NCBI RefSeq assembly: GCF_013167455.1
Contig: NZ_CP038328.1
Source: Escherichia coli O157:H7
GTDB lineage: Bacteria > Pseudomonadota > Gammaproteobacteria > Enterobacterales > Enterobacteriaceae
DNA: 64,000 bases
Strand: one strand, 5' to 3'
Below the pieces are notes generated by a model. The model did no database searches and was not told the origin of the DNA. It worked only from the letters and a program-made list of their open reading frames with translations. Both the position numbers and the translations under genes were made by a program. Below are positions 25,559-56,584 of the stretch, in pieces; the stretch's first letter is position 1; every line of letters starts with the position of its first letter.

Positions 25559-25660
25559 TAAAAACATTAGGTTACGGCGAAGAAGAACGGAAACGCCTTA
25601 AACCGGAAAATTTTCATAAATAGTGAAAAACCGCGAGGTCGCCGCCCCGTAACCTGTCGG
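25559..25660 (-). other. Prophage cos site (cosN 25636..25647 = GGGCGGCGACCT on the minus strand, cosB toward Nu1)
   Basis: Reverse complement matches the recalled lambda left end GGGCGGCGACCTCGCGG...TTTATGAAAATTTTCCGGTTTAAGGCGTTTCCGTTCTTCTTCG. Confidence 0.85.
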
Positions 25661-26697: not shown

Positions 26698-27108
26698 ATG
26701 GCTCAGGTTGCCATTTTTAAAGAAATATTCGATCAAGTGCGAAAAGATTTAAACTGTGAATTGTTTTATTCTGAACTAAAACGTCACAATGTCTCACATT
26801 ATATTTACTATCTAGCCACAGATAATATTCACATTGTGTTAGAAAACGATAACACTGTGTTAATAAAAGGACTTAAAAAGGTTGTGAATGTTAAATTCTC
26901 AAGAAATACGCATCTTATAGAAACGTCCTATGATAGGTTGAAATCAAGAGAAATCACATTTCAGCAATACAGGGAAAATCTTGCTAAAGCAGGAGTTTTC
27001 CGATGGGTTACAAATATCCACGAACATAAAAGATATTACTATGCCTTTGATAATTCATTACTATTTACTGAGAGCATTCAGAACACTACACAAATCTTTC
27101 CACGCTAA
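26698..27108 (+). CDS. DUF1398 prophage protein, YbcV-like
   Basis: 136 aa from [13 protein letters not shown]... Confidence 0.5.
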
Positions 27109-27399
27109 ATCATCACGTCCGGTTTCTTCCGTGTCAGCACCGGGGCGTTGGCATAATGCAATACGTGTACGCGCTAAACCCTGTGTGCATCGTTATTAAT
27201 TATTCCCGGACACTCCCGCAGAGGAGTTTCCCTGTCAGGGCTGCGGACATAGTTAATCCGGGAATACAGTGACGATCCTTCGCATCTGACATACATTAAT
27301 AAATATTAACAATATGAGATTTCAACTCATTGTTTAGGGTTTGTTTAATTTTCTACACATACGATTCTGCGAACTTTAAAAAGCATCGGGAATAACACC

Positions 27400-27693
27400 A
27401 TGAAAAAAATGCTACTCGCTACTGCGCTGGCCCTGCTTATTACAGGATGTGCCCAACAGACGTTTACTGTTCAAAACAAACCGGCAGCAGTAACACCAAA
27501 GGAAACCATCACCCACCATTTCTTCGTCTCTGGAATTGGGCAGAAGAAAACTGTCGATGCAGCTAAAATTTGTGGCGGCGCAGAAAATGTTGTTAAAACA
27601 GAAACCCAGCAAACATTCGTAAATGGATTGCTCGGTTTTATTACTTTAGGCATTTATACTCCGCTGGAAGCGCGTGTGTATTGCTCACAATAA
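27400..27693 (+). CDS. bor: Bor lipoprotein (serum-resistance moron)
   Basis: 97 aa, lipobox LITGC, lambda Bor-like, transcribed opposite to late genes. Confidence 0.85.
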   Translation: MKKMLLATALALLITGCAQQTFTVQNKPAAVTPKETITHHFFVSGIGQKKTVDAAKICGGAENVVKTETQQTFVNGLLGFITLGIYTPLEARVYCSQ

Positions 27694-27724
27694 TTGCATG
27701 AGCTGCCCATCGATATGGGCAGCT

Positions 27725-45500: not shown

Positions 45501-45586
45501 ATATGTCCTTTTATCACCACAGCAAGGCAACCCATTGATTTAATTAAACAACCCACACTGCAAAAAGTGCTAAAAACAGCAAATTG

Positions 45587-45607
45587 ACTACACCATTAAC
45601 TACACCG
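45587..45607 (+). repeat. Satellite att direct repeat, left copy
   Basis: Identical 21-mer to 56564..56584; flanks also similar. Confidence 0.6.
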
Positions 45608-45990
45608 TTCGGTGCACTGTATGAAACAACGTGGAACAAATAGACACAAGAAATATACAGGCGGGTAATCTTTCCAGGGGGAAGCGCACCAATTCATGAG
45701 GGGCGTTAATGTCGATATGGGGATCCCCATAACGGGGCTACCGGATTTTTTTTCCGGTTAACTGTTAATCAGGCTGGTGGGTTTTACCTGTTCGGTAGGT
45801 GTTATGATTATCGTAATACCTTTCCCCCAGTGGGGTAAAAGCTCCAACCGTAACGATGTTCGTTGTGGTTGCCTTGATGGTCTGCGTGGTCATTATGACC
45901 ATTCAGAATATGAAGGGTGACGCTTCCGACTTCCTCAAATTGAGGTTTCCGAAAATATCAGCGGGTTAGCGATTAATCTGACCATTAATT

Positions 45991-46013
45991 AAACTACGAA
46001 AATTTCGTAGTTT
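45991..46013. other. Perfect palindrome AAACTACGAAAATTTCGTAGTTT
   Basis: Read in sequence, ~90 bp downstream of the last satellite ORF; possible terminator or operator. Confidence 0.4.
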
Positions 46014-46100
46014 GTGAATATATTCCGGCCTTCTGATTAACAGTCCTCAGATGTGAGGATGTAGCCAGCGCAATTTTGCGTTATCGGGAATATCAGCAAG

Positions 46101-46382
46101 TTACCGCCGCAGCCGTTCCGGCTTCTTCCAGTGGTACGTTATTTTTTCTTTCTCCCGATACAGTTCAACGCGGCGATTGTAGGCCAGCATTTCAAGAACG
46201 CGGTTCCGTATGTTGCGCATATCAACGCCATTAAGTTCTATACCATCACGGCGCATCACTTCCGCTACAACACGCACATAATTTTCAGCGGTCACGCTGT
46301 CCGGCTGTGTGGCCTGTTCGTCATGCTGCTGGCTGATTCCGGCGACGCGGCGGATTAATCCCAGTAGTTCGGCTTCTGTCAT
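46101..46382 (-). CDS. Hypothetical protein, satellite, cos-proximal
   Basis: 93 aa ORF starting just left of cos copy A. Confidence 0.4.
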   Translation of the reverse strand: MTEAELLGLIRRVAGISQQHDEQATQPDSVTAENYVRVVAEVMRRDGIELNGVDMRNIRNRVLEMLAYNRRVELYREKEKITYHWKKPERLRR

Positions 46383-46416
46383 TGTGCCCCCATCGCTCTG
46401 ATAGTCTGGTGTCGTC

Positions 46417-46464
46417 GGGTCCTTCCTGGAATTATGGCCCGTTACGGGGCGGCGACCTCGCGGT
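46417..46464 (+). repeat. Satellite cos copy A (cosN GGGCGGCGACCT at 46448..46459), followed by a lambda-cosB-like tract to ~46637
   Basis: 48-bp inverted repeat with 47309..47356; downstream TTTATGAGAATTTTCCGG resembles the lambda left end. Confidence 0.8.
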
Positions 46465-46637
46465 TTTTATCTGTTTATGAGAATTTTCCGGCAAAAGTCA
46501 GATCCGATCTTCTTCTCTGTAACAGACTGTTTAACAATGAAAATATTAAAAAAAGAAAGGATCTGACACGAGGCATTTTAGCCAGAAAATGCCATTATCA
46601 GATCCTTTCTCATTTTTGTTCAATAATTGCGCGTCTG

Positions 46638-47180
46638 TTACTCGCCTTTCTTCTGTAGCAACTTTTCCGGTACGTTTCCGGTTGTTTCTTTCAAGTAATC
46701 AGCCAGTATCTGTGGGAGGTTGTCGGCAACTCTGGCACTGGCATTACAGGCTTTAACCACTTCCCTTTTAAGCCTGTCCAGCATGGCGGGGGTAATCTGT
46801 GGGAAGCTCCTTTGCATAGTAAGCGGGAGGCTGTCCATGATTGATGAAATCTGACTCGCCAGCTTTGAAAGCGCGTACAGGCAAAACTCAGTATCAATCA
46901 CGTCACCGCGATCGCGATCGTTTTTAAGTTCCTGCGCCTCTGCCTGTGCTGTCAGTAATCTGATCCTGACTCGTAAAAGTTCATCATCGTCAATCTCGCC
47001 TTTGTCGTTTATAAGCTGGCTAATTGCATTGTTAACCCTATTTTCTATCACGCTGGCAACATCATAAAACGCCTCACGGCCTTTACGCTCAACGGGAGTT
47101 ACTCCCCACTTGTCGAACGCTGTCGCACTTACACGGCAGCTTTTCGCCATGTTTTTTTTGTTCATCAGATGAGATTTCAT
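46638..47180 (-). CDS. Terminase small subunit homologue (Nu1-like), satellite-encoded
   Basis: 180 aa; C-terminal region aligns with the prophage Nu1 in this window (LTAQAEAQELKNDRDRGDVIDTEFCLYALSKLASQISSIMDSLPLTMQRSFPQ vs LTRAQADAQELKNARDSAEVVETAFCTFVLSRIAGEIASILDGIPLSVQRRFPE). Confidence 0.75.
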   Translation of the reverse strand: MKSHLMNKKNMAKSCRVSATAFDKWGVTPVERKGREAFYDVASVIENRVNNAISQLINDKGEIDDDELLRVRIRLLTAQAEAQELKNDRDRGDVIDTEFCLYALSKLASQISSIMDSLPLTMQRSFPQITPAMLDRLKREVVKACNASARVADNLPQILADYLKETTGNVPEKLLQKKGE

Positions 47181-47308
47181 TAATACACCAACTTAATTAC
47201 TGCTTCAGGTTGGTGTATTGCTTGCATCTTTCCCTTTTCATTCATAAAGATAGATCAAACAACAAAACCACCACCACCACCCTGAAAAGGCTCATAAATA
47301 GCGAAAAT

Positions 47309-47356
47309 CCGCGAGGTCGCCGCCCCGTAACGGGCCATAATTCCAGGAAGGACCCG
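47309..47356 (-). repeat. Satellite cos copy B (cosN complement at 47314..47325), inverted relative to copy A
   Basis: Exact 48-bp reverse complement of 46417..46464; first 23 bp also identical to the prophage cos at 25631..25653. Confidence 0.8.
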
Positions 47357-47357
47357 T

Positions 47358-47379
47358 AAAAAAGCCGGATTTCTCCGGC
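47358..47379 (-). terminator. Intrinsic terminator, copy 1 of a repeated satellite hairpin
   Basis: AAAAAAGCCGGATTTCTCCGGC; on the minus strand a hairpin plus T6 just after the stop of 47386..47799. Confidence 0.55.
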
Positions 47380-47385
47380 CTTGTC

Positions 47386-47799
47386 TCAGATGGTTTTCAG
47401 TATGCGATCGATGTCGCCGTCATCGCCCTGGTTTCTGCCATCGTATGCCATGCCAGCTGATACGGCTTGCGGGCTGTGCATGTCCATAAAGTTTTCAAAG
47501 GCTGCGGTAAGTTCCGGCGCAACCTTCGGACGTTCCTGCTCTATGGTCATGCTAAGGATGCTTTTAGCCGTACCAACATCGATACAAGGCACGTTTGCCA
47601 TTGCACGCAACAGCGGCTGATAGTCTTTATGCTCATGAAGCGCCATAATCGCATCAGCGCACGGCTTGTCCTGCTCTTCCAGTTTGTTTAGTTGATATAC
47701 GGCCTCATAGGTTGATAAACCTCTGTCAGCCATTGCCCGCGCTTCGACTTTAAATTTACTCGCCAGCGGTAGCGTCATGATGCTTTCATTCGTTGCCAT
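47386..47799 (-). CDS. Hypothetical protein in the satellite capsid module
   Basis: 137 aa, downstream of the D-like gene. Confidence 0.4.
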   Translation of the reverse strand: MATNESIMTLPLASKFKVEARAMADRGLSTYEAVYQLNKLEEQDKPCADAIMALHEHKDYQPLLRAMANVPCIDVGTAKSILSMTIEQERPKVAPELTAAFENFMDMHSPQAVSAGMAYDGRNQGDDGDIDRILKTI

Positions 47800-47811
47800 C
47801 GTTCCCCCTGC

Positions 47812-48147
47812 TTATCGGGCCAGCGGCTGAACGGATACGCCGGAACCCGCAAAGGCGGCGCATTTTTTCGCATCGGTGTCGACGCTCTCAGGCCAGTTAA
47901 CGGCGGCAATATTGAATATCCCCGTCTTGTAACACTGTGCTGATTTCTGCTTTGACGTGTCCACAGGGTACGAGGTCAGATAAACAGCCTTGCCAGATTC
48001 CTGACCATCCCACGGCTTAAACTCGCCATTGTCTGCCAGCATCAGCGGGGTAAATTCCTGAATAACGCCAGCATCAGCGGCAAAATGTACCAACGTCGTG
48101 GATACCTGCTGACTGCCTGCAAATAACTCAATGTATGGAGTGTCCAT
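47812..48147 (-). CDS. Head decoration protein homologue (gpD-like), satellite-encoded
   Basis: 111 aa; C-terminus KKCAAFAGSGVSV vs prophage [15 protein letters not shown]. Confidence 0.65.
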   Translation of the reverse strand: MDTPYIELFAGSQQVSTTLVHFAADAGVIQEFTPLMLADNGEFKPWDGQESGKAVYLTSYPVDTSKQKSAQCYKTGIFNIAAVNWPESVDTDAKKCAAFAGSGVSVQPLAR

Positions 48148-48159
48148 AGAATCCCCCCG

Positions 48160-49215
48160 TTAACCAATTTTGACGGTAACAAATTTGCGAATATCTGCCG
48201 GTACCGGCTGCGGTGCACTGTGTGTCTGCACGTACTCAATCGCCGGATCGCCGTCCTCAATCCAGTTTTTCGGGTAAAACATGTTTTGTGTTGCGCCCGT
48301 TCTTACCGCTTCCTGATCCATTATCGCACCATAGGCCACCAGCCCTTTATTGTTGGTGTTACCCAGGACCAGCAAATCAGGCTCAAGGAAATATTTTTCG
48401 GTACCATCGCTGTCAGTGTATTTGCCGGAATAGACGATAAGGGCCAGATCACCAAGATAGCCTTTAAAGCTCACCACTTCGCCCAGGTTTTTACAGGCCA
48501 GTTCGGCGGCGGATTCTGAACCACGGGAAAGATCGTACAGCTCACGGAATTTTTTAAAGCTGCGTAATGTGCGCCATACCTCAGCGCCCATAATCATGAC
48601 GTTTGCGGGGCAACCAGCCTGATCAGCATAAAGCTCGATGTCATAGATTGGGTCGTGCATGTCTTTATCCTGCTCGGACCATTTTTTACCCTTGGCCTGC
48701 TCTATGATGCAGTTTTCCGGTATTTTCCAGTCGATTTCATAGCGTTCTATGCCTTCGCCCTCAATGATGTTTTTTCCGGTCGTTACCGCATTCACCGCCA
48801 GCCATTCCACGCGTGCCTTAATGGCGTTTATCTGGCGGCGCATGTTGCCAGTAATCAGGCGCATACGGCGATAGGTAGGGTCGTTAAGCTGTGCCGGATC
48901 TTCTCCAGCCATGCGCATGATGGTTTTCGTTGGATCGATTTCGTGCTTTGGCTTCATGTAGCCAGGTTTGATTGTGCTGGTTTCGTACCCTTTATCGCGC
49001 TGAACCTGGCTACCCACCATAGGCGAACAAAACGCCGACATGGTGACTTCTTCAATGTCCAGGGTATCCAGCATGATGTTTTGCGTGCTGAATGTCGCCA
49101 CGTTCGGGAAAAACAGCGTGGTAAACAGAGGGCTGAATTTAAAATCCGCAATATCCCCGCGATTCAGGTACATGAAAAGCTGGTTAGTGTTAAGTGCCGT
49201 TGCTTTGCCTGCCAT
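48160..49215 (-). CDS. Major capsid protein homologue (gpE-like), satellite-encoded
   Basis: 351 aa; alignable along its length with prophage gpE (e.g. KPGYMKPKHEIDP vs TPGYVKPKHEVNP; YPKNWIEDGDPAIEY vs YPKNWVTTGDPAREF). Confidence 0.85.
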   Translation of the reverse strand: MAGKATALNTNQLFMYLNRGDIADFKFSPLFTTLFFPNVATFSTQNIMLDTLDIEEVTMSAFCSPMVGSQVQRDKGYETSTIKPGYMKPKHEIDPTKTIMRMAGEDPAQLNDPTYRRMRLITGNMRRQINAIKARVEWLAVNAVTTGKNIIEGEGIERYEIDWKIPENCIIEQAKGKKWSEQDKDMHDPIYDIELYADQAGCPANVMIMGAEVWRTLRSFKKFRELYDLSRGSESAAELACKNLGEVVSFKGYLGDLALIVYSGKYTDSDGTEKYFLEPDLLVLGNTNNKGLVAYGAIMDQEAVRTGATQNMFYPKNWIEDGDPAIEYVQTHSAPQPVPADIRKFVTVKIG

Positions 49216-49454
49216 TATTCACCCCCATAATTTTTATGCATCCCAAGCGCCGCAAGTAAATAAGAGCGTACAAGTGAACCTATCGACGGCTCCGGCGTCA
49301 TCAGCGGATCCAGTCCAGCCGCAACGCCAGCTTCATAGTTTTTTTTGTGGCGCTGCTTGAGCACCTCCACGATTTCGGGGCTTATGTACACCGAAACACC
49401 GCTTTTTTTCTCTTCAGCCATAGTAAGAAATTCCTCTTCGACTAAAAAAATCAT
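49215..49454 (-). CDS. Hypothetical small protein upstream of the capsid gene
   Basis: 79 aa ORF, stop overlaps the capsid start; possible internal start at MAEEKK. Confidence 0.35.
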   Translation of the reverse strand: MIFLVEEEFLTMAEEKKSGVSVYISPEIVEVLKQRHKKNYEAGVAAGLDPLMTPEPSIGSLVRSYLLAALGMHKNYGGE

Positions 49455-49586
49455 AACTGGATGTTTATCCAGTCCTGATTATAATCAGAATTGCATTTTA
49501 TGCAATGATATTGAGTTATGTTGCAAATTATGAAATGATTATCCCGATCACGAACGCCAGTGCATCCAAAAACCTCATATGCAAAA

Positions 49587-49624
49587 GCCCGATAAGAACC
49601 CTCTGACCTTATCGGGCTTTTTTT
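49587..49624 (+). terminator. Plus-strand intrinsic terminator, convergent with the satellite operon
   Basis: GCCCGATAAG-n11-CTTATCGGGC followed by T7. Confidence 0.5.
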
Positions 49625-49630
49625 GGGCGC

Positions 49631-49652
49631 AAAAAAGCCGGATTGCTCCGGC
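49631..49652 (-). terminator. Intrinsic terminator, copy 2 of the repeated hairpin
   Basis: AAAAAAGCCGGATTGCTCCGGC just after the stop of 49673..49897. Confidence 0.55.
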
Positions 49653-49672
49653 TATGTGTGCTGTGTGCTGGC

Positions 49673-49897
49673 TCAGTCTCTGATCTCTTTCAGAAATTCT
49701 ATCAATGCATCTATCTGTTCAGGATTTACCGCCAGCATTTCACCGGATAGAGCACATCTCACAAAACCATGCTGATCCTTTTCAATCAGTGCGCCCGTCT
49801 CCAGGAATGCGCGGTAATCATTGATGCTCATCGTCTCCATGTTGTCAGCATGGTATTTATCACGCTGTTTTAATATCTCATCAAATTTCATCGGCAT
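49673..49897 (-). CDS. Hypothetical protein
   Basis: 74 aa ORF with its own terminator. Confidence 0.35.
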   Translation of the reverse strand: MPMKFDEILKQRDKYHADNMETMSINDYRAFLETGALIEKDQHGFVRCALSGEMLAVNPEQIDALIEFLKEIRD

Positions 49898-49993
49898 TGT
49901 TTTTTTCCTCTGTTGTGTCTGTTTGTTTCAGATAGTAACTATGCCTGACCGTGACGAAAACCCGGTAATGCGCCATACCGTTTCAACTGGTGC

Positions 49994-50016
49994 AAAAAAA
50001 GCCGGATTTCTCCGGC
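49994..50016 (-). terminator. Intrinsic terminator, copy 3 of the repeated hairpin
   Basis: AAAAAAAGCCGGATTTCTCCGGC just after the stop of 50024..50296. Confidence 0.55.
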
Positions 50017-50023
50017 TGTTTGA

Positions 50024-50296
50024 TTAGCTGTCCTGGTAATTGCGCCATATTTCATCACCAGCACCATCTATACCCATTTCGGCATAAGTGCGATCGACTG
50101 CCTTTTTCAGGTCTCCGAAATTATCCGGCGGCTCCGGTGCCCTCTGTGCCTTCCTTGAACATTCCAGCCGTCGCATCGTGATGTGATGCCGTTCCTTGTC
50201 TGTCTCCACCAGCTGCATGACTTCACCCCATCGCGCCGCCGCCCTCCGGTAAAAGCCTTTCGCCTCCAGTTCCTCCGCTATGCGGTCATGTACCAT
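50024..50296 (-). CDS. Small regulator, possibly PerC-family (family assignment tentative)
   Basis: 90 aa from MVHDRIAEELEAKGFYRRAAARWGEVM...; resemblance to PerC/Pch is from memory only. Confidence 0.35.
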   Translation of the reverse strand: MVHDRIAEELEAKGFYRRAAARWGEVMQLVETDKERHHITMRRLECSRKAQRAPEPPDNFGDLKKAVDRTYAEMGIDGAGDEIWRNYQDS

Positions 50297-50306
50297 CGTC
50301 ACCCCC

Positions 50307-50717
50307 TCAGAACGAAATATCATCACCGTAAGGGTCATCGCCTCCCGCTGGTGGCTGATTACCCTGTGTGCCTGTGGTTTTGCGTCTGTTCCCGCCTGGA
50401 CGTGCCGCGCGGGCACTGATTACGCTGTCTGCGATAACCTGCCAGCCCTGCCGCGTTTCTCCGTTCTGTCCGGTCCACTGGCTTACCTGCATCGTGCCGG
50501 ATACGCTGGCAACATCGCCTTTTTGATGTTTAGCCAGGAAGCCGGCCTGTTTGCCAAATGCGATGACCGATAACCATAACGTCGCCTGTCCGTCCTGTGC
50601 CTGGCTGCATGGCAAAGATACCGCCATACGCGCCAGCGTCATCGGTGTGCCCTTGCTGGTCTGTTTTACCTGCGGGTCGTCCACCAGCCGCCCGTAAGCG
50701 GCTATCTGTGCCGTCAT
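50307..50717 (-). CDS. ssb: Single-stranded DNA-binding protein
   Basis: 136 aa, Gly/Gln-rich linker and acidic C-terminal tail ...DDPYGDDISF. Confidence 0.75.
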   Translation of the reverse strand: MTAQIAAYGRLVDDPQVKQTSKGTPMTLARMAVSLPCSQAQDGQATLWLSVIAFGKQAGFLAKHQKGDVASVSGTMQVSQWTGQNGETRQGWQVIADSVISARAARPGGNRRKTTGTQGNQPPAGGDDPYGDDISF

Positions 50718-50995
50718 AATTCCACCTCTCCGGTTTTAACGTTGATGGTTGTTACCTGTTCCGCTTCGGCAATCTCCCGTTCTGTCAGCGTGGCAAAGTT
50801 TGCCGCCGCCGTGGTCATGAATGCGCTTATCAGGTCGGGATGTTCCTTCGCGTATCCTTCCCGCGTGTGGCGGTCTATCGTTCTGATTGCCACCTTTAAG
50901 GTGTGCTCAGTCATGTCTAACGCTTTATATTTTGGCTCTGTTCTGTCTCTGCGTTTTTGGGTCATTTCTCGCAACCTCTCACTTTTTCGCCTCAC
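50714..50995 (-). CDS. Hypothetical protein
   Basis: 93 aa ORF immediately downstream of the iteron region. Confidence 0.35.
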   Translation of the reverse strand: MRRKSERLREMTQKRRDRTEPKYKALDMTEHTLKVAIRTIDRHTREGYAKEHPDLISAFMTTAAANFATLTEREIAEAEQVTTINVKTGEVEL

Positions 50996-51167
50996 TTTTT
51001 CAAGCGTCTCACTTCGTCGCAGTTGGGATTTTCGGTTTTTCTATGTGTGTGTTTCATAAGTATTTTTTTACCCCTCACTTTTGAGGATGTATACAGGTCG
51101 AAAAGTGAGGGAGAGCGGGCTAATTTTGGCCCTCTTTCTATCCCCCTCGCTTTTGCTCCTCACTTTT
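50978..51167. repeat. Putative satellite replication origin: at least six CTCACTTTT-type iterons in both orientations
   Basis: Copies at 50978, 50991, 51008 (variant), 51074, 51101 (inverted), 51146 (variant), 51159; directly 3' of rep. Confidence 0.55.
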
Positions 51168-52566
51168 ATAGCGGCGCTACATCATCCCCATCGATACGAA
51201 TAACCCCATCTTTTTCCAGCTTGTACAGCCAGCGCCGGAAGTTTTTCATTTCATACCCCAGCTTTTTCATGTCATCACGTAACAGCGGGATCGTGCACTT
51301 GTCGCCGTTCTGTGTGCGTGAACGGATGCACCCCCATAGCGCGGTATGGTTTTCCGTCTTGTTCCCTGCCTCCTCGATGCGCTCCAGTTCAACAGGAGGG
51401 CGCGGATCATCCACCACCACCAGCGACGTGATTAATTCACCGTCAGCGTCGGTAAAAAGCTCCACCACGCGTAAGTCATATGCGGCTTCTTTGAGTTCCT
51501 CCGCGTCCTTCATTTTGGTGCATGAGATAACCAGCGCTTCGCTTCCTGCGTCCTCCCTGCGTATCCGGTATTCAGCATCCAGCGAAGCACGAAATGCACT
51601 GGAACCGCGCGCGCCTTTCGTCTCATCCTTGCCGGAATGGTGAACCACCAGCACCGTGGCCCCTGTGCGTCGTTTCAGTTCGTCACAACCACGGATAAAC
51701 GCCCCCATATCACGGGAATCATTTTCATCATTCCCACCAAAGCAACGCGCCAGCGTATCCAGAATAATCATGCGTACAGGTTTACCCGTTTCCCGCTCCA
51801 CCTGACGGGCAGCGATAACCATTTCATCAACATCAAGCGGGGCAGCCGGAAAGATGGGGCGGTTTACCAGATACAGATTTTTCACCTGCTCATCGTGCAC
51901 AACCTCCCAGGCTTTTACACGACGCGGAACACCTATACCGCCTTCACCAACCACATAGAGAACCGCACCATGTGCAACCCTGCGGCCTCCCCACTGGCGA
52001 CCAGTGGCAACATGGCACGCCCACGATCCGGCAAGGAATGATTTATAGGACCCGCTAGCCCCGTATATGCTGCATAGCGATACCGCCGGAATAATCCCCT
52101 TAACCACGTAATCCAGTTGCGTGTCGTATCCGGTAGATCCAACGCTCATCGGTAGCGTGGTTTTTCGCTGGTGGTTTTTTTCTTCCGCCGGCTCTTTCCC
52201 GCGCACCCGTTCCAGGTATTCGCGCCAGTTCTCCCGCATATGGCTGTGCATCCCTTCGGGGTAATAATTCGCATCAGTTACACCCGCCGCCGCCAGCTTG
52301 TGCGCAATGGCATTAATATTTGATGGCCTGATGTGGCCTGCCTTGTACAGCCGGACACAATAGCGCCCCTCGTCGATGATTCTCAGTTCTGCCAGTTCAT
52401 CCAGTTGATCATCAGCCAGCACAACGGGAGGCACATTATCGCCAGCCAGTCGCCCGTCCTGTTCCTGCCACTGTTTCGCATGTGCCCAGGCATCACTACC
52501 CGCAAAAATAATGACTTCGGTCATCTTGTCGTAAGGCTGTTTTTTTAAGTTCGGTGCGCTTTTCAT
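51166..52566 (-). CDS. Replication protein, RecA-fold P-loop ATPase (RepA/AAA_25-like helicase)
   Basis: 466 aa; Walker A-like GASGSYKS and Walker B-like RMIILDTLA; upstream of iterons. Confidence 0.65.
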   Translation of the reverse strand: MKSAPNLKKQPYDKMTEVIIFAGSDAWAHAKQWQEQDGRLAGDNVPPVVLADDQLDELAELRIIDEGRYCVRLYKAGHIRPSNINAIAHKLAAAGVTDANYYPEGMHSHMRENWREYLERVRGKEPAEEKNHQRKTTLPMSVGSTGYDTQLDYVVKGIIPAVSLCSIYGASGSYKSFLAGSWACHVATGRQWGGRRVAHGAVLYVVGEGGIGVPRRVKAWEVVHDEQVKNLYLVNRPIFPAAPLDVDEMVIAARQVERETGKPVRMIILDTLARCFGGNDENDSRDMGAFIRGCDELKRRTGATVLVVHHSGKDETKGARGSSAFRASLDAEYRIRREDAGSEALVISCTKMKDAEELKEAAYDLRVVELFTDADGELITSLVVVDDPRPPVELERIEEAGNKTENHTALWGCIRSRTQNGDKCTIPLLRDDMKKLGYEMKNFRRWLYKLEKDGVIRIDGDDVAPL

Positions 52567-52862
52567 TTCTTGCCCCTGAATCCGTTAACCATGGTTTTCA
52601 GCTTCTGGATGTTTGCCCGTGCCCTGGCGTTGCTGGTGGGCACGTTATGCGGCGCGGTCTGTACCAGAGAAAAATCACGCCGGAACTGATAAACAGGCAT
52701 CACGCAATCATATTCGTAACCTTCACGGCGGTAGGTTACGCGCCGTTCTTCCACGCCCTTAATCATTACCGTGCCGCCGTACTGGTCGCGGTAAATATCA
52801 CCGCGCGTAAATTTAGGGTGAGTGTTGCCACTGGCAGTTAAGCCAGAATATTTAAGTTTCAT
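52563..52862 (-). CDS. Hypothetical protein
   Basis: 99 aa, stop overlaps rep start. Confidence 0.35.
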   Translation of the reverse strand: MKLKYSGLTASGNTHPKFTRGDIYRDQYGGTVMIKGVEERRVTYRREGYEYDCVMPVYQFRRDFSLVQTAPHNVPTSNARARANIQKLKTMVNGFRGKK

Positions 52863-52867
52863 TATTT

Positions 52868-53101
52868 TTATTCTCCGGTGTGCTGTTCTTTATATCTGTC
52901 GTGCAATAGATCTATTTCTTGCAGTTCCATTATTACAGGCTCAAGAAGCGTTATTAATGCCGTGGCAATTCTTGATTTTTGTTTGTCGCGTTCATTGTCG
53001 CCAAGTGTTTCAAGCCATATGCGCAATATTTCCATCATGTTTTCACTGTGAGAAAGTGCAAGAAATGCGCGGTCTATTGTTTGGTGGTAAATATCACGCA
53101 T
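52868..53101 (-). CDS. Hypothetical protein
   Basis: 77 aa, tightly packed in the operon. Confidence 0.3.
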   Translation of the reverse strand: MRDIYHQTIDRAFLALSHSENMMEILRIWLETLGDNERDKQKSRIATALITLLEPVIMELQEIDLLHDRYKEQHTGE

Positions 53102-53558
53102 GGCTTACATCCTCAGGAAATTTTCTTCTATAACGCGCCTCTGCCACATATTCCGCATAATCGGCGGCGATATTCAGTACATCAAGCCCCGTTGATTTAT
53201 ATTCTCTCGTGGAAAGTAAGAAAAAAGCCGCTCTAATAAGTTCTGGCATTGACGAAAGCGCATCAGCCGCATCATCAGGAACGCCGGAAAATTCCTGTTT
53301 CAGGGAATTAAAACGATCATCACGCATAACCCCCCCATTTTCACAATCAGCAATCAGGATAGCTTTGGCCTCATTCAGCGCCGTATCAGCACTAAATTGC
53401 ATGACAGCCAGTGAGTGAGGAACGAAAGCACCGGCATATTCTGTTTCGCTGGTGGCGTGCTTATGTGCCCTGTCCGCGATAACAGAAATATCAATCAGCG
53501 CGTGCATCAGCGTTTTGATGGCTTCGGCGGCTGCGTCCGGTGTGGTTTTATTGTGCAT
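53094..53558 (-). CDS. Hypothetical protein
   Basis: 154 aa, overlapping neighbours on both sides. Confidence 0.4.
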   Translation of the reverse strand: MHNKTTPDAAAEAIKTLMHALIDISVIADRAHKHATSETEYAGAFVPHSLAVMQFSADTALNEAKAILIADCENGGVMRDDRFNSLKQEFSGVPDDAADALSSMPELIRAAFFLLSTREYKSTGLDVLNIAADYAEYVAEARYRRKFPEDVSHA

Positions 53559-53760
53559 AAAGCATCCCCTGAATATTCGTGTTAATCATTCCGGCACGTT
53601 TTGTGATTTCCTGTAATGATTCCCTTGTGGCGACAATTGCTTCATCTGGTAAGTGGTAATTACACACCACGCGACCTTTATCCACATTGACCAGTAGCTG
53701 CCCTGTGAATTTCTCACGAAACTGAATGCGGTTAAGGTCAGTAAGTGACAGATTAATCAT
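53548..53760 (-). CDS. Hypothetical protein
   Basis: 70 aa from MINLSLTDL...; RBS AGGAGG; ATGATTAA overlap with the upstream gene. Confidence 0.35.
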   Translation of the reverse strand: MINLSLTDLNRIQFREKFTGQLLVNVDKGRVVCNYHLPDEAIVATRESLQEITKRAGMINTNIQGMLYAQ

Positions 53761-53950
53761 GGCGCACCTCCTGACGAATACGGGCGGCAAATACAGCAAC
53801 ACAACCGGACGGGCAACGGTTACGCGCTTCGCGTTCCGTCCAGGCGGTTACGTGGATGATTTGAGATTCTCCGGCACTCAGTGCCAGAAAACGCCACACA
53901 AAGGCCGTTTGTGTGTGTACAAGGTGTGGTATATGATTTACGGCAACCAT
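53753..53950 (-). CDS. Hypothetical protein, first gene of the satellite leftward operon
   Basis: 65 aa from MVAVNHIPHL...; RBS GGAG 5 nt upstream. Confidence 0.35.
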   Translation of the reverse strand: MVAVNHIPHLVHTQTAFVWRFLALSAGESQIIHVTAWTEREARNRCPSGCVAVFAARIRQEVRHD

Positions 53951-54040
53951 AACGGCTCCTAGTTTACGTTGTTGGTTAGACGCCCCGTATGTGTTCCCAG
54001 CACTGCGGGGCGTTGATTTTTGTGTAATGGCAAGTACAAT

Positions 54041-54080
54041 GGTAATTACCATGTAGGTATAGCAATAAAGGGTAATTACC
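54041..54080. promoter_or_regulatory. Two perfect 10-bp palindromes GGTAATTACC, 30 bp apart, in the divergent control region
   Basis: Copies at 54041..54050 and 54071..54080, each followed by ATGT; the second abuts the RHH start codon. Confidence 0.5.
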
Positions 54081-54254
54081 ATGTCAACACCATTAGAAAA
54101 ACGTTCGCCTCCATACCAAATGCGATTACCGGAAGACTTCAGAGCGCAGCTAGAAGAAGCTGCTAAGGCCGATGGCGACACATCTTTAGCCACTTGGATT
54201 AAACGCGTTCTCCGCAAAGAATTACAGCAACGCGGCATAGAACCCAAAGGATAA
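54081..54254 (+). CDS. Ribbon-helix-helix (Arc/MetJ-like) DNA-binding protein
   Basis: 57 aa by manual translation (MSTPLEKRSPPYQMRLPEDFRAQLEEAAKADGDTSLATWIKRVLRKELQQRGIEPKG); below the ORF-track cutoff. Confidence 0.5.
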   Translation: MSTPLEKRSPPYQMRLPEDFRAQLEEAAKADGDTSLATWIKRVLRKELQQRGIEPKG

Positions 54255-54296
54255 AAACTATCAGCGCCGTGGTGTGAGGTATTACGGCGCATTGCT

Positions 54297-54485
54297 ATGC
54301 AGGACAACACAATGACCGATAAAGAATTGACCAAAACATTATCACCGGCACGGAAAAGACGGCGCAGAAAGATAGAGCATGAATCAGAAAGATTCGCGCC
54401 ATGTGCTTTTGCCCTTGAGCAATTCCTTAAAGAGTACAGGGAAACGCGCCCATTGCAGGTATGGCAACGAACTGAACCAGACTGA
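54297..54485 (+). CDS. Hypothetical small basic protein
   Basis: 62 aa with KRRRRK; downstream of the RHH gene, before the + strand terminator. Confidence 0.3.
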   Translation: MQDNTMTDKELTKTLSPARKRRRRKIEHESERFAPCAFALEQFLKEYRETRPLQVWQRTEPD

Positions 54486-54578
54486 TAGCATTGCCCACCA
54501 GCCTGATAGCGGCTATCATCCCCGTGCTTATGTTTGGGATCATATACACATAAGGCGCAGCGGGTTATCTGTTCAGAA

Positions 54579-54608
54579 AGGCGGCTCCATTTCGGGGCCG
54601 CTTTTTTT
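54579..54608 (+). terminator. Intrinsic terminator closing the RHH transcription unit
   Basis: GCGGCTCC-ATTTC-GGGGCCGC followed by T7. Confidence 0.5.
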
Positions 54609-54754
54609 ATGCCTGAAAAACCCCAATTTTGTGGTTTTCCAGTCTCACCAGGGCGAACGAATCCCCGCCCACGTTCTGGCGTATATTCAATCTTCATGGT
54701 TATAGCTCTGTGTTCAGATGATTGATGTGTGGCGGCTGTGTGCCGCCAGCGTGA

Positions 54755-54943
54755 TTAATGAACTGCCTTGCAGCTATCCTTCCAGGCCAGAACCTCGGAT
54801 AAAGACCAGCCAACGGAACGACCGCCAAGTTTACGACGTGATGGGAATTGTCCGGCCTTTTCCAGGCGGTAGCGACACGTACGGCTAAGGCCGGTTAGTT
54901 TTTCGCATTCTTTTTCACGTATAAACCGATCAGTGCTTAACAC
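54755..54943 (-). CDS. alpA: AlpA-family transcriptional regulator (excisionase-like)
   Basis: 62 aa; pattern ...LTGLSRTCRYRLEKAGQFP...GGRSVGWSLSEVLAW typical of AlpA. Confidence 0.75.
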   Translation of the reverse strand: MLSTDRFIREKECEKLTGLSRTCRYRLEKAGQFPSRRKLGGRSVGWSLSEVLAWKDSCKAVH

Positions 54944-55307
54944 TATTGCCCCCTTTCGTTTCTTAAAGAGTCATCAGGTGTCTTATTGTGTCGTATTGTT
55001 CCCGCTAGAGTGATGAATGGCAAATACTGAGGATGTATGATTTACAGAAAATGAAAAAGTAAGAATAAAATCTTTTAAATTCATGTTAATACAAAGGCAT
55101 AAAATATTGTTCCATGCCTTTTTTCTCGCTCTTTAAAGAGTGATTCGCTAGTGTATAAAAAACCAGTAACACATTAAAAATCAGCTACTTATAAATCCGT
55201 ACGCTTTTTCGCCTCTTGTTCGTAGTTGTTCCACATTGTTGCTCATTGTTGCACGTTGTATCTGTTCGCATATCCAGTATGCGCATACTGAAAAAACACG
55301 AAAAAAA

Positions 55308-56558
55308 TTATTTTCTTCTGGCTACTGGTAGCGTGGTTACGTTTTCATGTGTTCCCGCCAGTATCCCTAACCGCTCCGTCCACATATCCAGCGCATTGCG
55401 TTTCGCATCCAGATAACGGGAATGATTATAAACTCGCTGCATTCCTGGCATCTGGTGGCCTGTAAGCTGCTCCACGACATGCGGATCAACGCCTAAATCG
55501 TTCAGCATGGTTGTAAAGGTGCGCCGGATGTCATGCAGTGACCAGTGAGGGTGATTAAGCCTCCTGTGCGCTAATCTTCCATACTGCGATACGCTGGCCT
55601 CCTGTTTCACTTCCCCCAGCAATAAGCCCGTGTGCCTGTTCTGCTCCACCAGCTGCGTGATGAACGGCAGTATTGCTTCCGGTATAGGCCGGAATATGGC
55701 TACCTTCGTTTTGCTGTGCTCCTTCGGAACGGTCCAGAGCATTTCGGTAAAATCCCACTCGCTGATCTCCGATAACCTCAGTTCTACCGTCCGGCATCCG
55801 AACACAATCAGGAGGCGGATTAACGCGATGTAGTAGGGGGAGAATATTTTTTTGTCCAGTGCCTGCAATAATTCGCCCAGTTCTTTGGTGCTTAAGACAC
55901 GCTCGCTTATATCCGGTTTTTTCCCAACGTCCGCCACACTCATATCATCAAGAACGTTGCTGATTGCATAGCGCCGCCTCCGGCAGAACTTAAGCGCCTG
56001 TTTGCACGTCTGTAGCAAGAATCCGGCAGTAACAGGCGTTCGCTTTGCCACCTGGTCAAAACAGGCCAGCCAGTGCCGTAGCTCGCATTTATCCAGCGGC
56101 ATAGCACCAATGTGCTGTATTACGTGATTATTAAGGCGCTTTTTCAGGGCGGCATAATCCACGCGGTTTTCCTTTGCGTACGACTCAAGCCAGTAGGTGA
56201 GCGCATCGCCAACCGTTACCGGCTTTAACGCTTCCTGTACGGTGTAATTAAGCTCATGACGTGGATTTTTCCCCTCTGCCAGCCATGCGCGACACTGGGC
56301 GGCTTTTTCCCTGGCTGATTTCAGGCTCAGATCAGGATAATTTCCCAGCTTAATGCGTTCCGGTGGTGCCCCCCTTCCCGTTCCGGCCCTGTAAGTGAAA
56401 TACCAGGTTAAAAGGCCACTGGTTGAATGCCTGACGCTCAGGTTTCCACCGTCATTAAGAAAGGCTGTTTTTTGGGCGGGTGTGCCGTTGATTTTCCTCA
56501 GCTGTGTATCGCTCAGTTTGTTAAGTGCTCTGCTCATAATTTTGATTCCGGTCATCAC
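55308..56558 (-). CDS. int: Tyrosine integrase (P4/satellite-type)
   Basis: 416 aa; C-terminal catalytic residues; adjacent to the right att repeat. Confidence 0.9.
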   Translation of the reverse strand: MMTGIKIMSRALNKLSDTQLRKINGTPAQKTAFLNDGGNLSVRHSTSGLLTWYFTYRAGTGRGAPPERIKLGNYPDLSLKSAREKAAQCRAWLAEGKNPRHELNYTVQEALKPVTVGDALTYWLESYAKENRVDYAALKKRLNNHVIQHIGAMPLDKCELRHWLACFDQVAKRTPVTAGFLLQTCKQALKFCRRRRYAISNVLDDMSVADVGKKPDISERVLSTKELGELLQALDKKIFSPYYIALIRLLIVFGCRTVELRLSEISEWDFTEMLWTVPKEHSKTKVAIFRPIPEAILPFITQLVEQNRHTGLLLGEVKQEASVSQYGRLAHRRLNHPHWSLHDIRRTFTTMLNDLGVDPHVVEQLTGHQMPGMQRVYNHSRYLDAKRNALDMWTERLGILAGTHENVTTLPVARRK

Positions 56559-56563
56559 AATTA

Positions 56564-56584
56564 ACTACACCATTAACTACACCG
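56564..56584 (+). repeat. Satellite att direct repeat, right copy (preceded by a tandem ATTAACTACACC unit)
   Basis: Identical 21-mer to 45587..45607. Confidence 0.6.

Follow-up and report, generated by a model that had tools for sequence, protein, structure and literature searches.

The open reading frame at positions 50024..50296 of the window, by which we mean the whole 64,000-nt stretch of Escherichia coli O157:H7 DNA that was analysed, is, judging from its sequence, an allele of pchE, a group 3 homologue of PerC, in the form carried by TW14359-like strains. The gene sits on an 11-kb satellite of the PICI type that is a mosaic variant of the island known as OI-51, CP-933C, Sp7 or EcCIEDL933. 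We propose that this TW14359-type allele probably acts in the control of curli and flagella, through regulator and nucleoid-protein complexes, and that it does not activate LEE1 as PerC does. The pchE gene, its island and the PerC family are already known and annotated: the RefSeq label for the product, both here and in TW14359, is “PerC family transcriptional regulator”, and positions 35000-64000 of the window are 99.993% identical to O157:H7 TW14359. What is specific to the window is the lineage I/II-type allele of pchE together with the mosaic island around it.

The reading frame lies on the minus strand, with an ATG at 50296 and a TAA at 50026-50024 (the coordinates include the stop codon), and encodes 90 aa. 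The initial annotation had reported a 90-aa protein here with no mention of its strand. A GAGGGGG Shine-Dalgarno sequence is located 5-6 nt 5ʹ of the ATG. We rejected a GTG start at 50416, which would extend the protein to 130 aa, because the longer frame overlaps ssb and the Pfam model begins at the ATG of the 90-aa form. Relative to the Sakai allele dN/dS is 0.23, and the median for 511 allele pairs is 0.255; hence, pchE is under purifying selection, with a dN/dS of about 0.25. The DNA of the gene was found in 725 of 5426 complete E. coli genomes, and in 358 at an identity of at least 99%. One 100%-identical match, CP061267, is labelled a plasmid, but is a chromosome fragment that includes phoPQ and roxA, and lends no support to plasmid carriage. 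The Pfam and PHROG matches described below, the Shine-Dalgarno sequence, the intrinsic terminator, the dN/dS and the spread across E. coli genomes together establish that 50024..50296 is a genuine gene and not a chance ORF.

The initial annotation had also suggested a member of the PerC/Pch family, to be checked by a profile search. That search gives a significant match: Pfam PerC (PF06069) aligns with the protein at 146 bits (E 4.3e-43), from residues 1-89 to positions 1-89 of the 90 in the model. PHROG 994 matches as well (E 3e-47), and EPEC PerC (from pMAR2) is 40% identical over 89 residues (E 4e-18). In an alignment of 57 sequences that represent the family, R17 and A19 are invariant, and A7, L10, E11, G14, R18, A20, R22, W23 and C46 are near-invariant; the window protein retains every one of these residues. 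The full-length Pfam match, the similarity to EPEC PerC and the retention of the conserved residues establish membership of the PerC family. All 57 representatives match PerC alone in profile searches, and PerC-family proteins are also present in the genomes of virulent and temperate phages. In the window, pchE is the sole member of the family.

Within the family, the closest named relative is PchE of the Sakai strain (ECs_1588), which is likewise 90 aa long and is identical at 81 of 90 positions (90%). The nine substitutions (Q28L, H38Q, I39V, R52K, A53P, K64R, A79V, G80S and Q88P) all fall outside the family-conserved residues. The syntenic gene in Sakai is pchE, in “prophage Sp7” between roxA and phoQ. 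EPEC PerC and the group 1 proteins PchA/B/C belong to the same Pfam family, are of similar size, are 40–44% identical to the window PchE over its full length, and share with it C46 and the motif AExLExxG(L/F)YRRAAxRW. However, there is no close identity to group 1: the window protein shares only 44% identity with P0055, whose first residues, MLHDHL, are those specified by the published pchA/B/C primers. The genomic settings differ too. PerC is encoded on a plasmid beside the AraC-type PerA and PchA/B/C are encoded in lambdoid prophages, whereas PchE is encoded on a satellite; thus, carriage by a lambdoid prophage with SOS induction, as for group 1, does not describe the window gene, which lies in an 11-kb satellite.

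The arrangement around pchE shows that the gene is the last of three tightly packed cistrons, running from the edge of an iteron-containing origin to a strong intrinsic terminator:

50966..51165, minus strand: intergenic region with iterons, a putative satellite replication origin (sequence and heptamer count)
50714..50965, minus strand: small hypothetical protein, homologue of ECs1586, first cistron (phrog_1231)
50307..50717, minus strand: ssb, single-stranded DNA-binding protein, homologue of ECs1587, middle cistron (phrog_44, E 4.5e-39)
50024..50296, minus strand: pchE allele, 90-aa PerC-family protein, group 3 Pch (Pfam match, identity to Sakai, dN/dS)
49992..50021, minus strand: intrinsic terminator 3ʹ of pchE (repeat family and terminator scan)

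The ECs1586-like gene and ssb overlap by 4 nt, and 10 nt separate the stop codon of ssb from the ATG of pchE. The terminator follows the pchE stop codon by 6 nt, with a stem of AGCCGGA/TCCGGCT (50017-50000) and then a run of T. It is one of three near-identical terminators between modules of the island (49992-50021, 49628-49657 and 47355-47384), and the terminator scan found 8 where 2.1 were expected. Upstream, six of the window's 12 matches to the heptamer AAGTGAG are clustered within 188 bp (50978-51165) immediately beyond the helicase gene, as would be expected for the replication origin of a PICI; we regard this six-iteron region as a putative origin.

A published analysis that combined RNA-seq with 5ʹ-RACE placed the start of the pchE transcript at a G that precedes ECs1586 by 10 nt and pchE by 675-680 nt, and described the ECs1586-ECs1587-pchE RNA as polycistronic (PMC7369912). 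The equivalent distance in the window is 679 nt. Since the published geometry holds in the window, the start of the pchE operon probably lies near 50975, at the edge of the iteron region. In addition, transcription of pchE was reported without induction, and SOS/prophage induction lowered the transcript more than 6-fold (PMC6265319). By extension from these studies of the Sakai-type allele, the resident island in the window would transcribe the operon without induction. From the origin-proximal promoter, transcription would then run no further than pchE, whose expression would resemble that of a lysogenic-conversion gene, with the capsid genes silent.

The initial annotation had placed the gene on a satellite, and the surrounding sequence bears this out. 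The element is bounded by attachment-site repeats and includes the following features:

45582..45607, no strand: left attachment-site direct repeat, AATTGACTACACCATTAACTACACCG, just after phoQ (repeat search)
46447-46463 and 47309-47325: lambda-type cosN cores, one on either side of the terS-like gene
46638..49215, minus strand: packaging/capsid module (PHROGs and PDB sequence matches)
46638-47180, minus strand: terS-like protein
47386-47799, minus strand: 137-aa protein
47812-48147, minus strand: gpD-like decoration protein
48160-49215, minus strand: lambda gpE-like major capsid protein (PDB 3bqw, E 9e-232; lambda gpE 7vi9, E 1.6e-80)
51166..52566, minus strand: RepA-family helicase/primase-like replication protein (phrog_2850, E 3e-267)
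54755..54943, minus strand: AlpA-family regulator/excisionase (phrog_2790)
55308..56537, minus strand: tyrosine integrase of the P4 type, at the roxA-proximal end (phrog_1, E 2e-76)
56559..56584, no strand: right attachment-site direct repeat, identical to the left copy at 25 of 26 positions

The 26-nt repeats are 10,977 bp apart, which delimits an element of about 11.0 kb between phoQ and roxA. Reading from roxA to phoQ, all genes are on the minus strand, in the order integrase, AlpA, a broken Icd-like gene, several small proteins, a DUF4222 protein, the RepA-type helicase, the pchE operon, the gpE-like capsid protein, the gpD-like decoration protein, the 137-aa protein and the terS-like protein. 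The element thus has the composition of a PICI-type satellite: an integrase at one end, AlpA, a replication gene with iterons, a length in the range of ~10-15 kb and att repeats, but no tail or lysis family in a scan of 17 island proteins. Searches of the island against Rfam returned no match, none of the island genes encodes an AraC-family partner, and a PDB sequence search of the small proteins of the packaging module found no homologue of Rpp. A 76-nt inverted repeat that surrounds the terS-like gene contains the two cosN cores, and the neighbouring lambdoid prophage has an identical core; the two in the island are packaging determinants of the element's own that are compatible with a helper phage. 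EcCICFT073 likewise has two cos sites (PMC6739421), and helper-phage induction and high-frequency transfer are known for the related elements EcCIEDL933 and EcCICFT073. A wider survey gives the same setting, with the pchE relative in a satellite backbone in 80 of 80 related loci.

Comparison with Sakai shows how far the island is a mosaic. Sp7 (OI-51, CP-933C, the cf-PICI EcCIEDL933) occupies the same site between roxA and phoQ and has the same ECs1586-ssb-pchE cassette. Only three parts are common to the two islands, which agree at 98% in the integrase end, at 78% in part of the RgdR region and at 94% in the pchE cassette. The identity of 94% for the cassette extends over positions 49632-50967, which puts the window gene at the position orthologous to that of the group 3 gene. 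In contrast, the replicase of Sp7 is a P4-alpha primase and that of the window island is a RepA-type helicase, with no similarity in that stretch, and the HK97-type head/protease/portal/terL module of Sp7 is replaced in the window by the lambda E/D-type capsid and decoration genes and the terS-like gene. This pattern agrees with a comparative genomic hybridization study, which found the ORFs of Sp7 to be divergent in lineage I/II and lineage II strains, with pchE still hybridizing in lineage I/II (PMC1890555). We surveyed 80 loci in IMG/VR that encode relatives of PchE at 60-100% identity. All 80 place the gene in a satellite backbone, and in 68 of them it comes directly after ssb. The module that follows pchE is of the lambda-E/D type in 43 loci and of the HK97 type in 23, and RgdR is present in 67.

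What does PchE do? Published experiments used the Sakai-type allele, which is nine substitutions away from the window allele. The published primers match Sakai exactly and have 3-4 mismatches to the window; hence, the published data apply to a 90%-identical allele and not to the exact window protein. Over-expression of PchE reduced csgD expression more than 7-fold, repressed csgA, and reduced curli, biofilm formation and adherence to HEp-2 cells, and deletion of pchE slightly increased Congo-red binding; most of the phenotypes come from plasmid over-expression, and the effects of deletion are small (PMC6265319). PchE also raises flhDC, fliC and motility, and lowers eae, stpA and adherence to HEp-2 cells, while over-expression of the Sakai protein raised ler 2.1-fold (PMC7369912). 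PerC and PchA/B/C activate LEE1 by relieving silencing by H-NS, whereas PchE is reported to act on csgD and flhDC and not to activate LEE1. According to work cited in PMC6265319 (Iyoda & Watanabe 2004, Porter 2005), only group 1 Pch proteins are needed for full expression of ler and espA and for adherence; groups 2 and 3 are described there as not required for ler/espA and as having little effect on LEE. Likewise, according to PMC11773190, which cites Porter 2005, LEE1-lacZ fusions were unaffected by the PerC-like genes of EcCIEDL933 and EcCICFT073. The initial annotation had assigned the 90-aa protein to the activators of the LEE regulon; given these accounts of group 3 genes in PMC6265319 and PMC11773190, as far as they are summarized there, we do not retain that role.

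The LEE-activating gene of this island family has been identified elsewhere in the element. Deletion of OI-51 reduced LEE expression and colonization of sheep, and the effect was mapped to ECs1581, which encodes RgdR (Flockhart et al., PMC3378721). RgdR, which is 99 aa long and has RGD at residues 20-22, is an activator of LEE1 and a repressor of motility; activity is also reported for the TW14359 variant (PMC3378721). Two genes of the window are relevant to type III secretion:

52563..52862, minus strand: RgdR homologue (ECs1581-like, DUF4222, 99 aa), 81% identical to Sakai ECs1581
61779..63140, plus strand: espK, T3SS effector gene (TW14359 annotation, locus 26780-28141; Sakai ECs_1568 espK)

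The homologue in the window keeps the RGD motif. It is RgdR and not PchE for which activation of LEE1/T3S has been shown experimentally in the island family. The initial annotation had suggested that the satellite could modulate host virulence gene expression if its reading of the gene was correct. This idea is right, but through a different gene, since the LEE effect was mapped to RgdR, of which the window carries a homologue. The effector-like gene to which the same annotation drew attention is espK, and it lies outside the satellite, beyond roxA-pepT-potAB.

RgdR and PchE are encoded in the same satellite backbone, and both are small and have pleiotropic effects, but RgdR belongs to DUF4222, a family unrelated to PerC. 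Their reported effects are roughly opposite, if the separate reports are set against one another: with RgdR, T3S and Congo-red binding go up and motility goes down, whereas with PchE motility goes up and curli and adherence go down. The papers on PchE make no mention of RgdR.

A predicted structure of PchE bears on its mechanism. An AlphaFold2 model (pLDDT 85.5) has five helices, at residues 5-13, 16-29, 33-50, 60-74 and 81-85. Neither the protein alone nor the profile of 57 sequences identified a true relative in sequence searches of the PDB; the weak matches to PACSIN2 and MIT-domain proteins had E-values of 0.01 or higher. A Foldseek search of the PDB with the model returned nothing at E < 1. 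Its top matches, MIT/TPR-like helical bundles with probabilities of at most 0.5, were not used. Profile searches of the 57 PerC-family representatives detected no helix-turn-helix or other DNA-binding family. PchE is thus predicted to be all-helical, with no recognizable DNA-binding fold in the model.

A second clue comes from the ANR family (Aar, Rnr, Cnr), whose members, like PchE, are small all-helical proteins. The NCBIfam profile ANR_neg_reg (NF033650) matches residues 7-52 of the window PchE at 20.4 bits (E 3.3e-4), which is below the curated cut-off of 32 bits; the genuine Aar from pAA-EA11 scores 65.5 bits. Sub-threshold matches in the same register, at 14-29.5 bits (best E 5e-7), occur in 9 of 11 PerC-family proteins, among them EPEC PerC and the two alleles of PchE. 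Moreover, the spacing of A7, E11, A19 and W23 in PchE equals that of the ANR consensus residues A10, E14, A22 and W26 (A-x3-E-x7-A-x3-W), and these ANR residues are needed for the activity of Aar according to the literature. Two weak plasmid matches, from Salmonella and Providencia, that came up as ANR candidates were rejected as being PerC-like. An hhalign comparison of the PerC alignment with Aar alone was not significant, and a comparison with an alignment of Aar relatives gave a probability of 1% and an E-value of 0.045, although that alignment is too shallow for a fair test, as the search for Aar homologues gave five close sequences. Because the hhalign comparisons with Aar are not significant, the similarity between the PerC and ANR families stays suggestive. 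There are differences as well: Aar is 66 aa long and the ANR profile covers 54 residues, whereas PchE has 90 aa and an extra conserved C-terminal helix outside the profile, and ANR proteins have AraC-type partners, whereas the PchE island has no gene for an AraC partner nearby. ANR proteins bind AraC-type activators and H-NS; for example, Aar binds H-NS and AggR (PMC5570504, PMC4983702). PchA relieves silencing by H-NS/StpA/Hha, but co-precipitation of PchA with H-NS was not obtained by the authors of that study (PMC4764244).

Together, these observations suggest how the satellite-encoded PchE may work. Extrapolating from the papers on the Sakai-type allele, the window protein would repress csgD, curli and biofilm formation and raise flhDC and flagella, with an effect on ler that would be at most roughly 2-fold; it would not be an activator of LEE1 like PerC or PchA/B/C. 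We propose that PchE most likely remodels regulator/nucleoid-protein complexes, which may be silencing complexes of the H-NS/StpA type or partner transcription factors, and that it would do so at csgD and flhDC. With PchA and the distantly similar ANR proteins as models, PchE would not be a classical sequence-specific activator.

An alternative explanation is that PchE is an activator of ler (LEE1) like PerC and PchA/B/C, through which the satellite switches on the T3SS regulon. PchE is a true member of the PerC family, with 40% full-length identity to EPEC PerC, the over-expressed Sakai protein raised ler 2.1-fold (PMC7369912), some PerC homologues encoded by PICIs activate LEE according to Fillol-Salom 2018, and the published data come from the Sakai-type allele and not from that of the window. 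Nonetheless, we consider this very unlikely. Group 2 and 3 Pch proteins are dispensable for ler/espA and have little effect on LEE in the account given by PMC6265319, LEE1-lacZ did not respond to the PerC-like genes of EcCIEDL933 and EcCICFT073 as PMC11773190 relates it from Porter 2005, PchE lowers eae and HEp-2 adherence (PMC7369912), it is only 44% identical to the group-1-like P0055, and the LEE activator of the island was mapped genetically to RgdR (PMC3378721). An opposite proposal is that PchE is an ANR-like anti-activator or repressor that binds an AraC-family activator or H-NS and turns down virulence genes, including LEE. There is a precedent in EcCIMP1_025, a PerC-like protein of the PICI EcCIMP1 that is ~40% identical to the PerC-like proteins of EcCIEDL933 and EcCICFT073: it strongly silences LEE1, assayed as LEE1-lux, in Citrobacter rodentium, and its authors suggest a relationship to ANR (PMC11773190). 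Silencing of this kind is not reported for PchE. The in-register ANR_neg_reg matches of up to 29.5 bits (E 5e-7), with key ANR residues shared, and the repression of csgD, eae and adherence by PchE (PMC6265319, PMC7369912) fit this proposal. However, the score of PchE is under the curated ANR cut-off, hhalign with Aar relatives is not significant, the conserved C-terminal helix falls outside the 54-residue profile, the island has no AraC-family partner gene, and ler went slightly up and not down on over-expression (PMC7369912), so that we regard an ANR-like repressor of LEE as rather improbable.

It is also conceivable, but unlikely, that PchE primarily serves the life cycle of the satellite, by controlling the downstream capsid/packaging module, countering silencing of the island by the host or interacting with the helper phage, for example, and that the host phenotypes are side effects of over-expression. 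The gene is fixed at the junction of replication and packaging functions in 80 of 80 loci, next to two unrelated capsid modules and several types of replicase. It is co-transcribed with ssb and under purifying selection, PerC-family proteins occur in virulent and temperate phages too, and the phenotypes of the deletion in the host are weak (PMC6265319). These points must be set against the transcription of pchE in the uninduced state and its decrease of more than 6-fold on SOS/prophage induction (PMC6265319), and against the terminator between pchE and the capsid genes. Moreover, no packaging or transfer phenotype is reported, and PerC is nowhere mentioned in the main text of the cf-PICI paper. 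A broader possibility, which we put forward tentatively and hold to be doubtful, is that PchE and RgdR are an antagonistic pair of conserved backbone genes within one satellite family, and that PerC proteins are a remote, C-terminally extended branch of ANR that acts by protein contact. PchE would then favour a motile, non-adherent host, with flagella up and curli, eae and adherence down, and RgdR would favour an adherent host with the T3SS on, with LEE and Congo-red binding up and motility down; PerC proteins would contact regulators of the H-NS/StpA or AraC type and would not be DNA-binding “activators”. The three rival explanations of PchE action are not mutually exclusive.

The initial annotation assigned the family correctly, and its reading of the protein as a LEE activator is largely superseded by published work. 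More generally, it would be a mistake to label a gene “LEE activator” on the strength of a PerC-family match in EHEC. At least three functional groups make up the family, and pchE belongs to the group that controls curli, biofilm and flagella, while the influence of the satellite on type III secretion runs through RgdR. The window carries a lineage I/II-type mosaic of this island. If PchE and RgdR are indeed opposing switches, phage satellites would set the balance between adhesion and motility of an important pathogen.

Comparison with Sakai Sp7/EcCIEDL933 shows the 11-kb PICI-type satellite between phoQ and roxA (45582-56584) to be a mosaic of that island. The two islands have in common the integrase end and the cassette carrying pchE, the 90-aa PerC-family gene. 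They differ in the replicase, a RepA helicase in the window island and a P4-alpha primase in Sakai Sp7, and in the capsid module. Sakai Sp7 has a complete HK97-type set, whereas the window island has a lambda E/D-type capsid and decoration protein, without portal, protease or terL. Both types of module recur 3ʹ of PchE in IMG/VR loci, where the lambda E/D type is the more frequent (43, versus 23 for HK97). The following features are discussed here:

47355-47384, 49628-49657 and 49992-50021, minus strand, three near-identical intrinsic terminators (GCCGGAGAAATCCGGC followed by a T-run)
48160-49215, minus strand, satellite major capsid protein, matching PDB 3bqw and lambda gpE
49939-50067, minus strand, 42-aa "hypothetical protein" annotated in RefSeq
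52563-52862, minus strand, RgdR homologue (ECs1581, DUF4222), with RGD at residues 20-22
53753-54697, minus strand, broken Icd-like gene, a pseudogene in RefSeq
61779-63140, plus strand, espK

The major capsid protein is essentially that of PDB 3bqw (E 9e-232), an entry titled "putative capsid protein of prophage", and lambda gpE is a clear relative (E 1.6e-80). The terS-like gene is flanked by a 76-nt inverted repeat (arms 46416-46491 and 47281-47356, 91%), both arms of which contain the lambda cosN core GGGCGGCGACCTCGCGG. Since an identical third core lies at 25631-25647, in the lambdoid prophage of the window's left part, that prophage could be a packaging helper.

AAGTGAG occurs six times within 188 bp (50978-51165), five times on the minus strand and once inverted, in the stretch that separates the helicase stop from the opening gene of the pchE operon. 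This region is a putative replication origin of the satellite, and the published pchE transcription start maps to the edge of the cluster. Each of the three GCCGGAGAAATCCGGC terminators marks a junction between satellite modules. Together they may block expression of the capsid genes until some factor is induced that permits read-through; this factor could be AlpA. The 42-aa RefSeq ORF, probably annotated in error, overlaps pchE at its 3ʹ end and extends across the pchE terminator.

The broken Icd-like gene, which lies in the interval from alpA to the replication genes, has an intact 430-aa version in CP061267 (locus L004, 4455-5747). The window satellite may be partly decayed. Downstream of alpA are two 17-nt copies of AA(T/G)GGTAATTACCATGT (54038-54054 and 54068-54084), at a spacing of 30 nt; the palindrome GGTAATTACC is present in both. 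They look like operators.

The only 100% "plasmid" match, CP061267.1 ("plasmid pSTEC1024_3"), is evidently a stretch of chromosome that was entered as a plasmid; phoPQ, roxA, pepT and mnmA are all on it. The region from espK to 64000 belongs to a lambdoid prophage, which in Sakai is Sp6, and forms its effector-rich end; it has no relation to the satellite. Downstream of espK (63200-64000) are a small hypothetical gene, which is EspO in Sakai, and then an NleB fragment and IS remnants.

The RgdR homologue shares 81% identity with its Sakai counterpart. RgdR has been described as the OI-51 activator of LEE1 and type III secretion and as a repressor of motility. The reported effects of RgdR and PchE, encoded on the same island, are roughly opposite.
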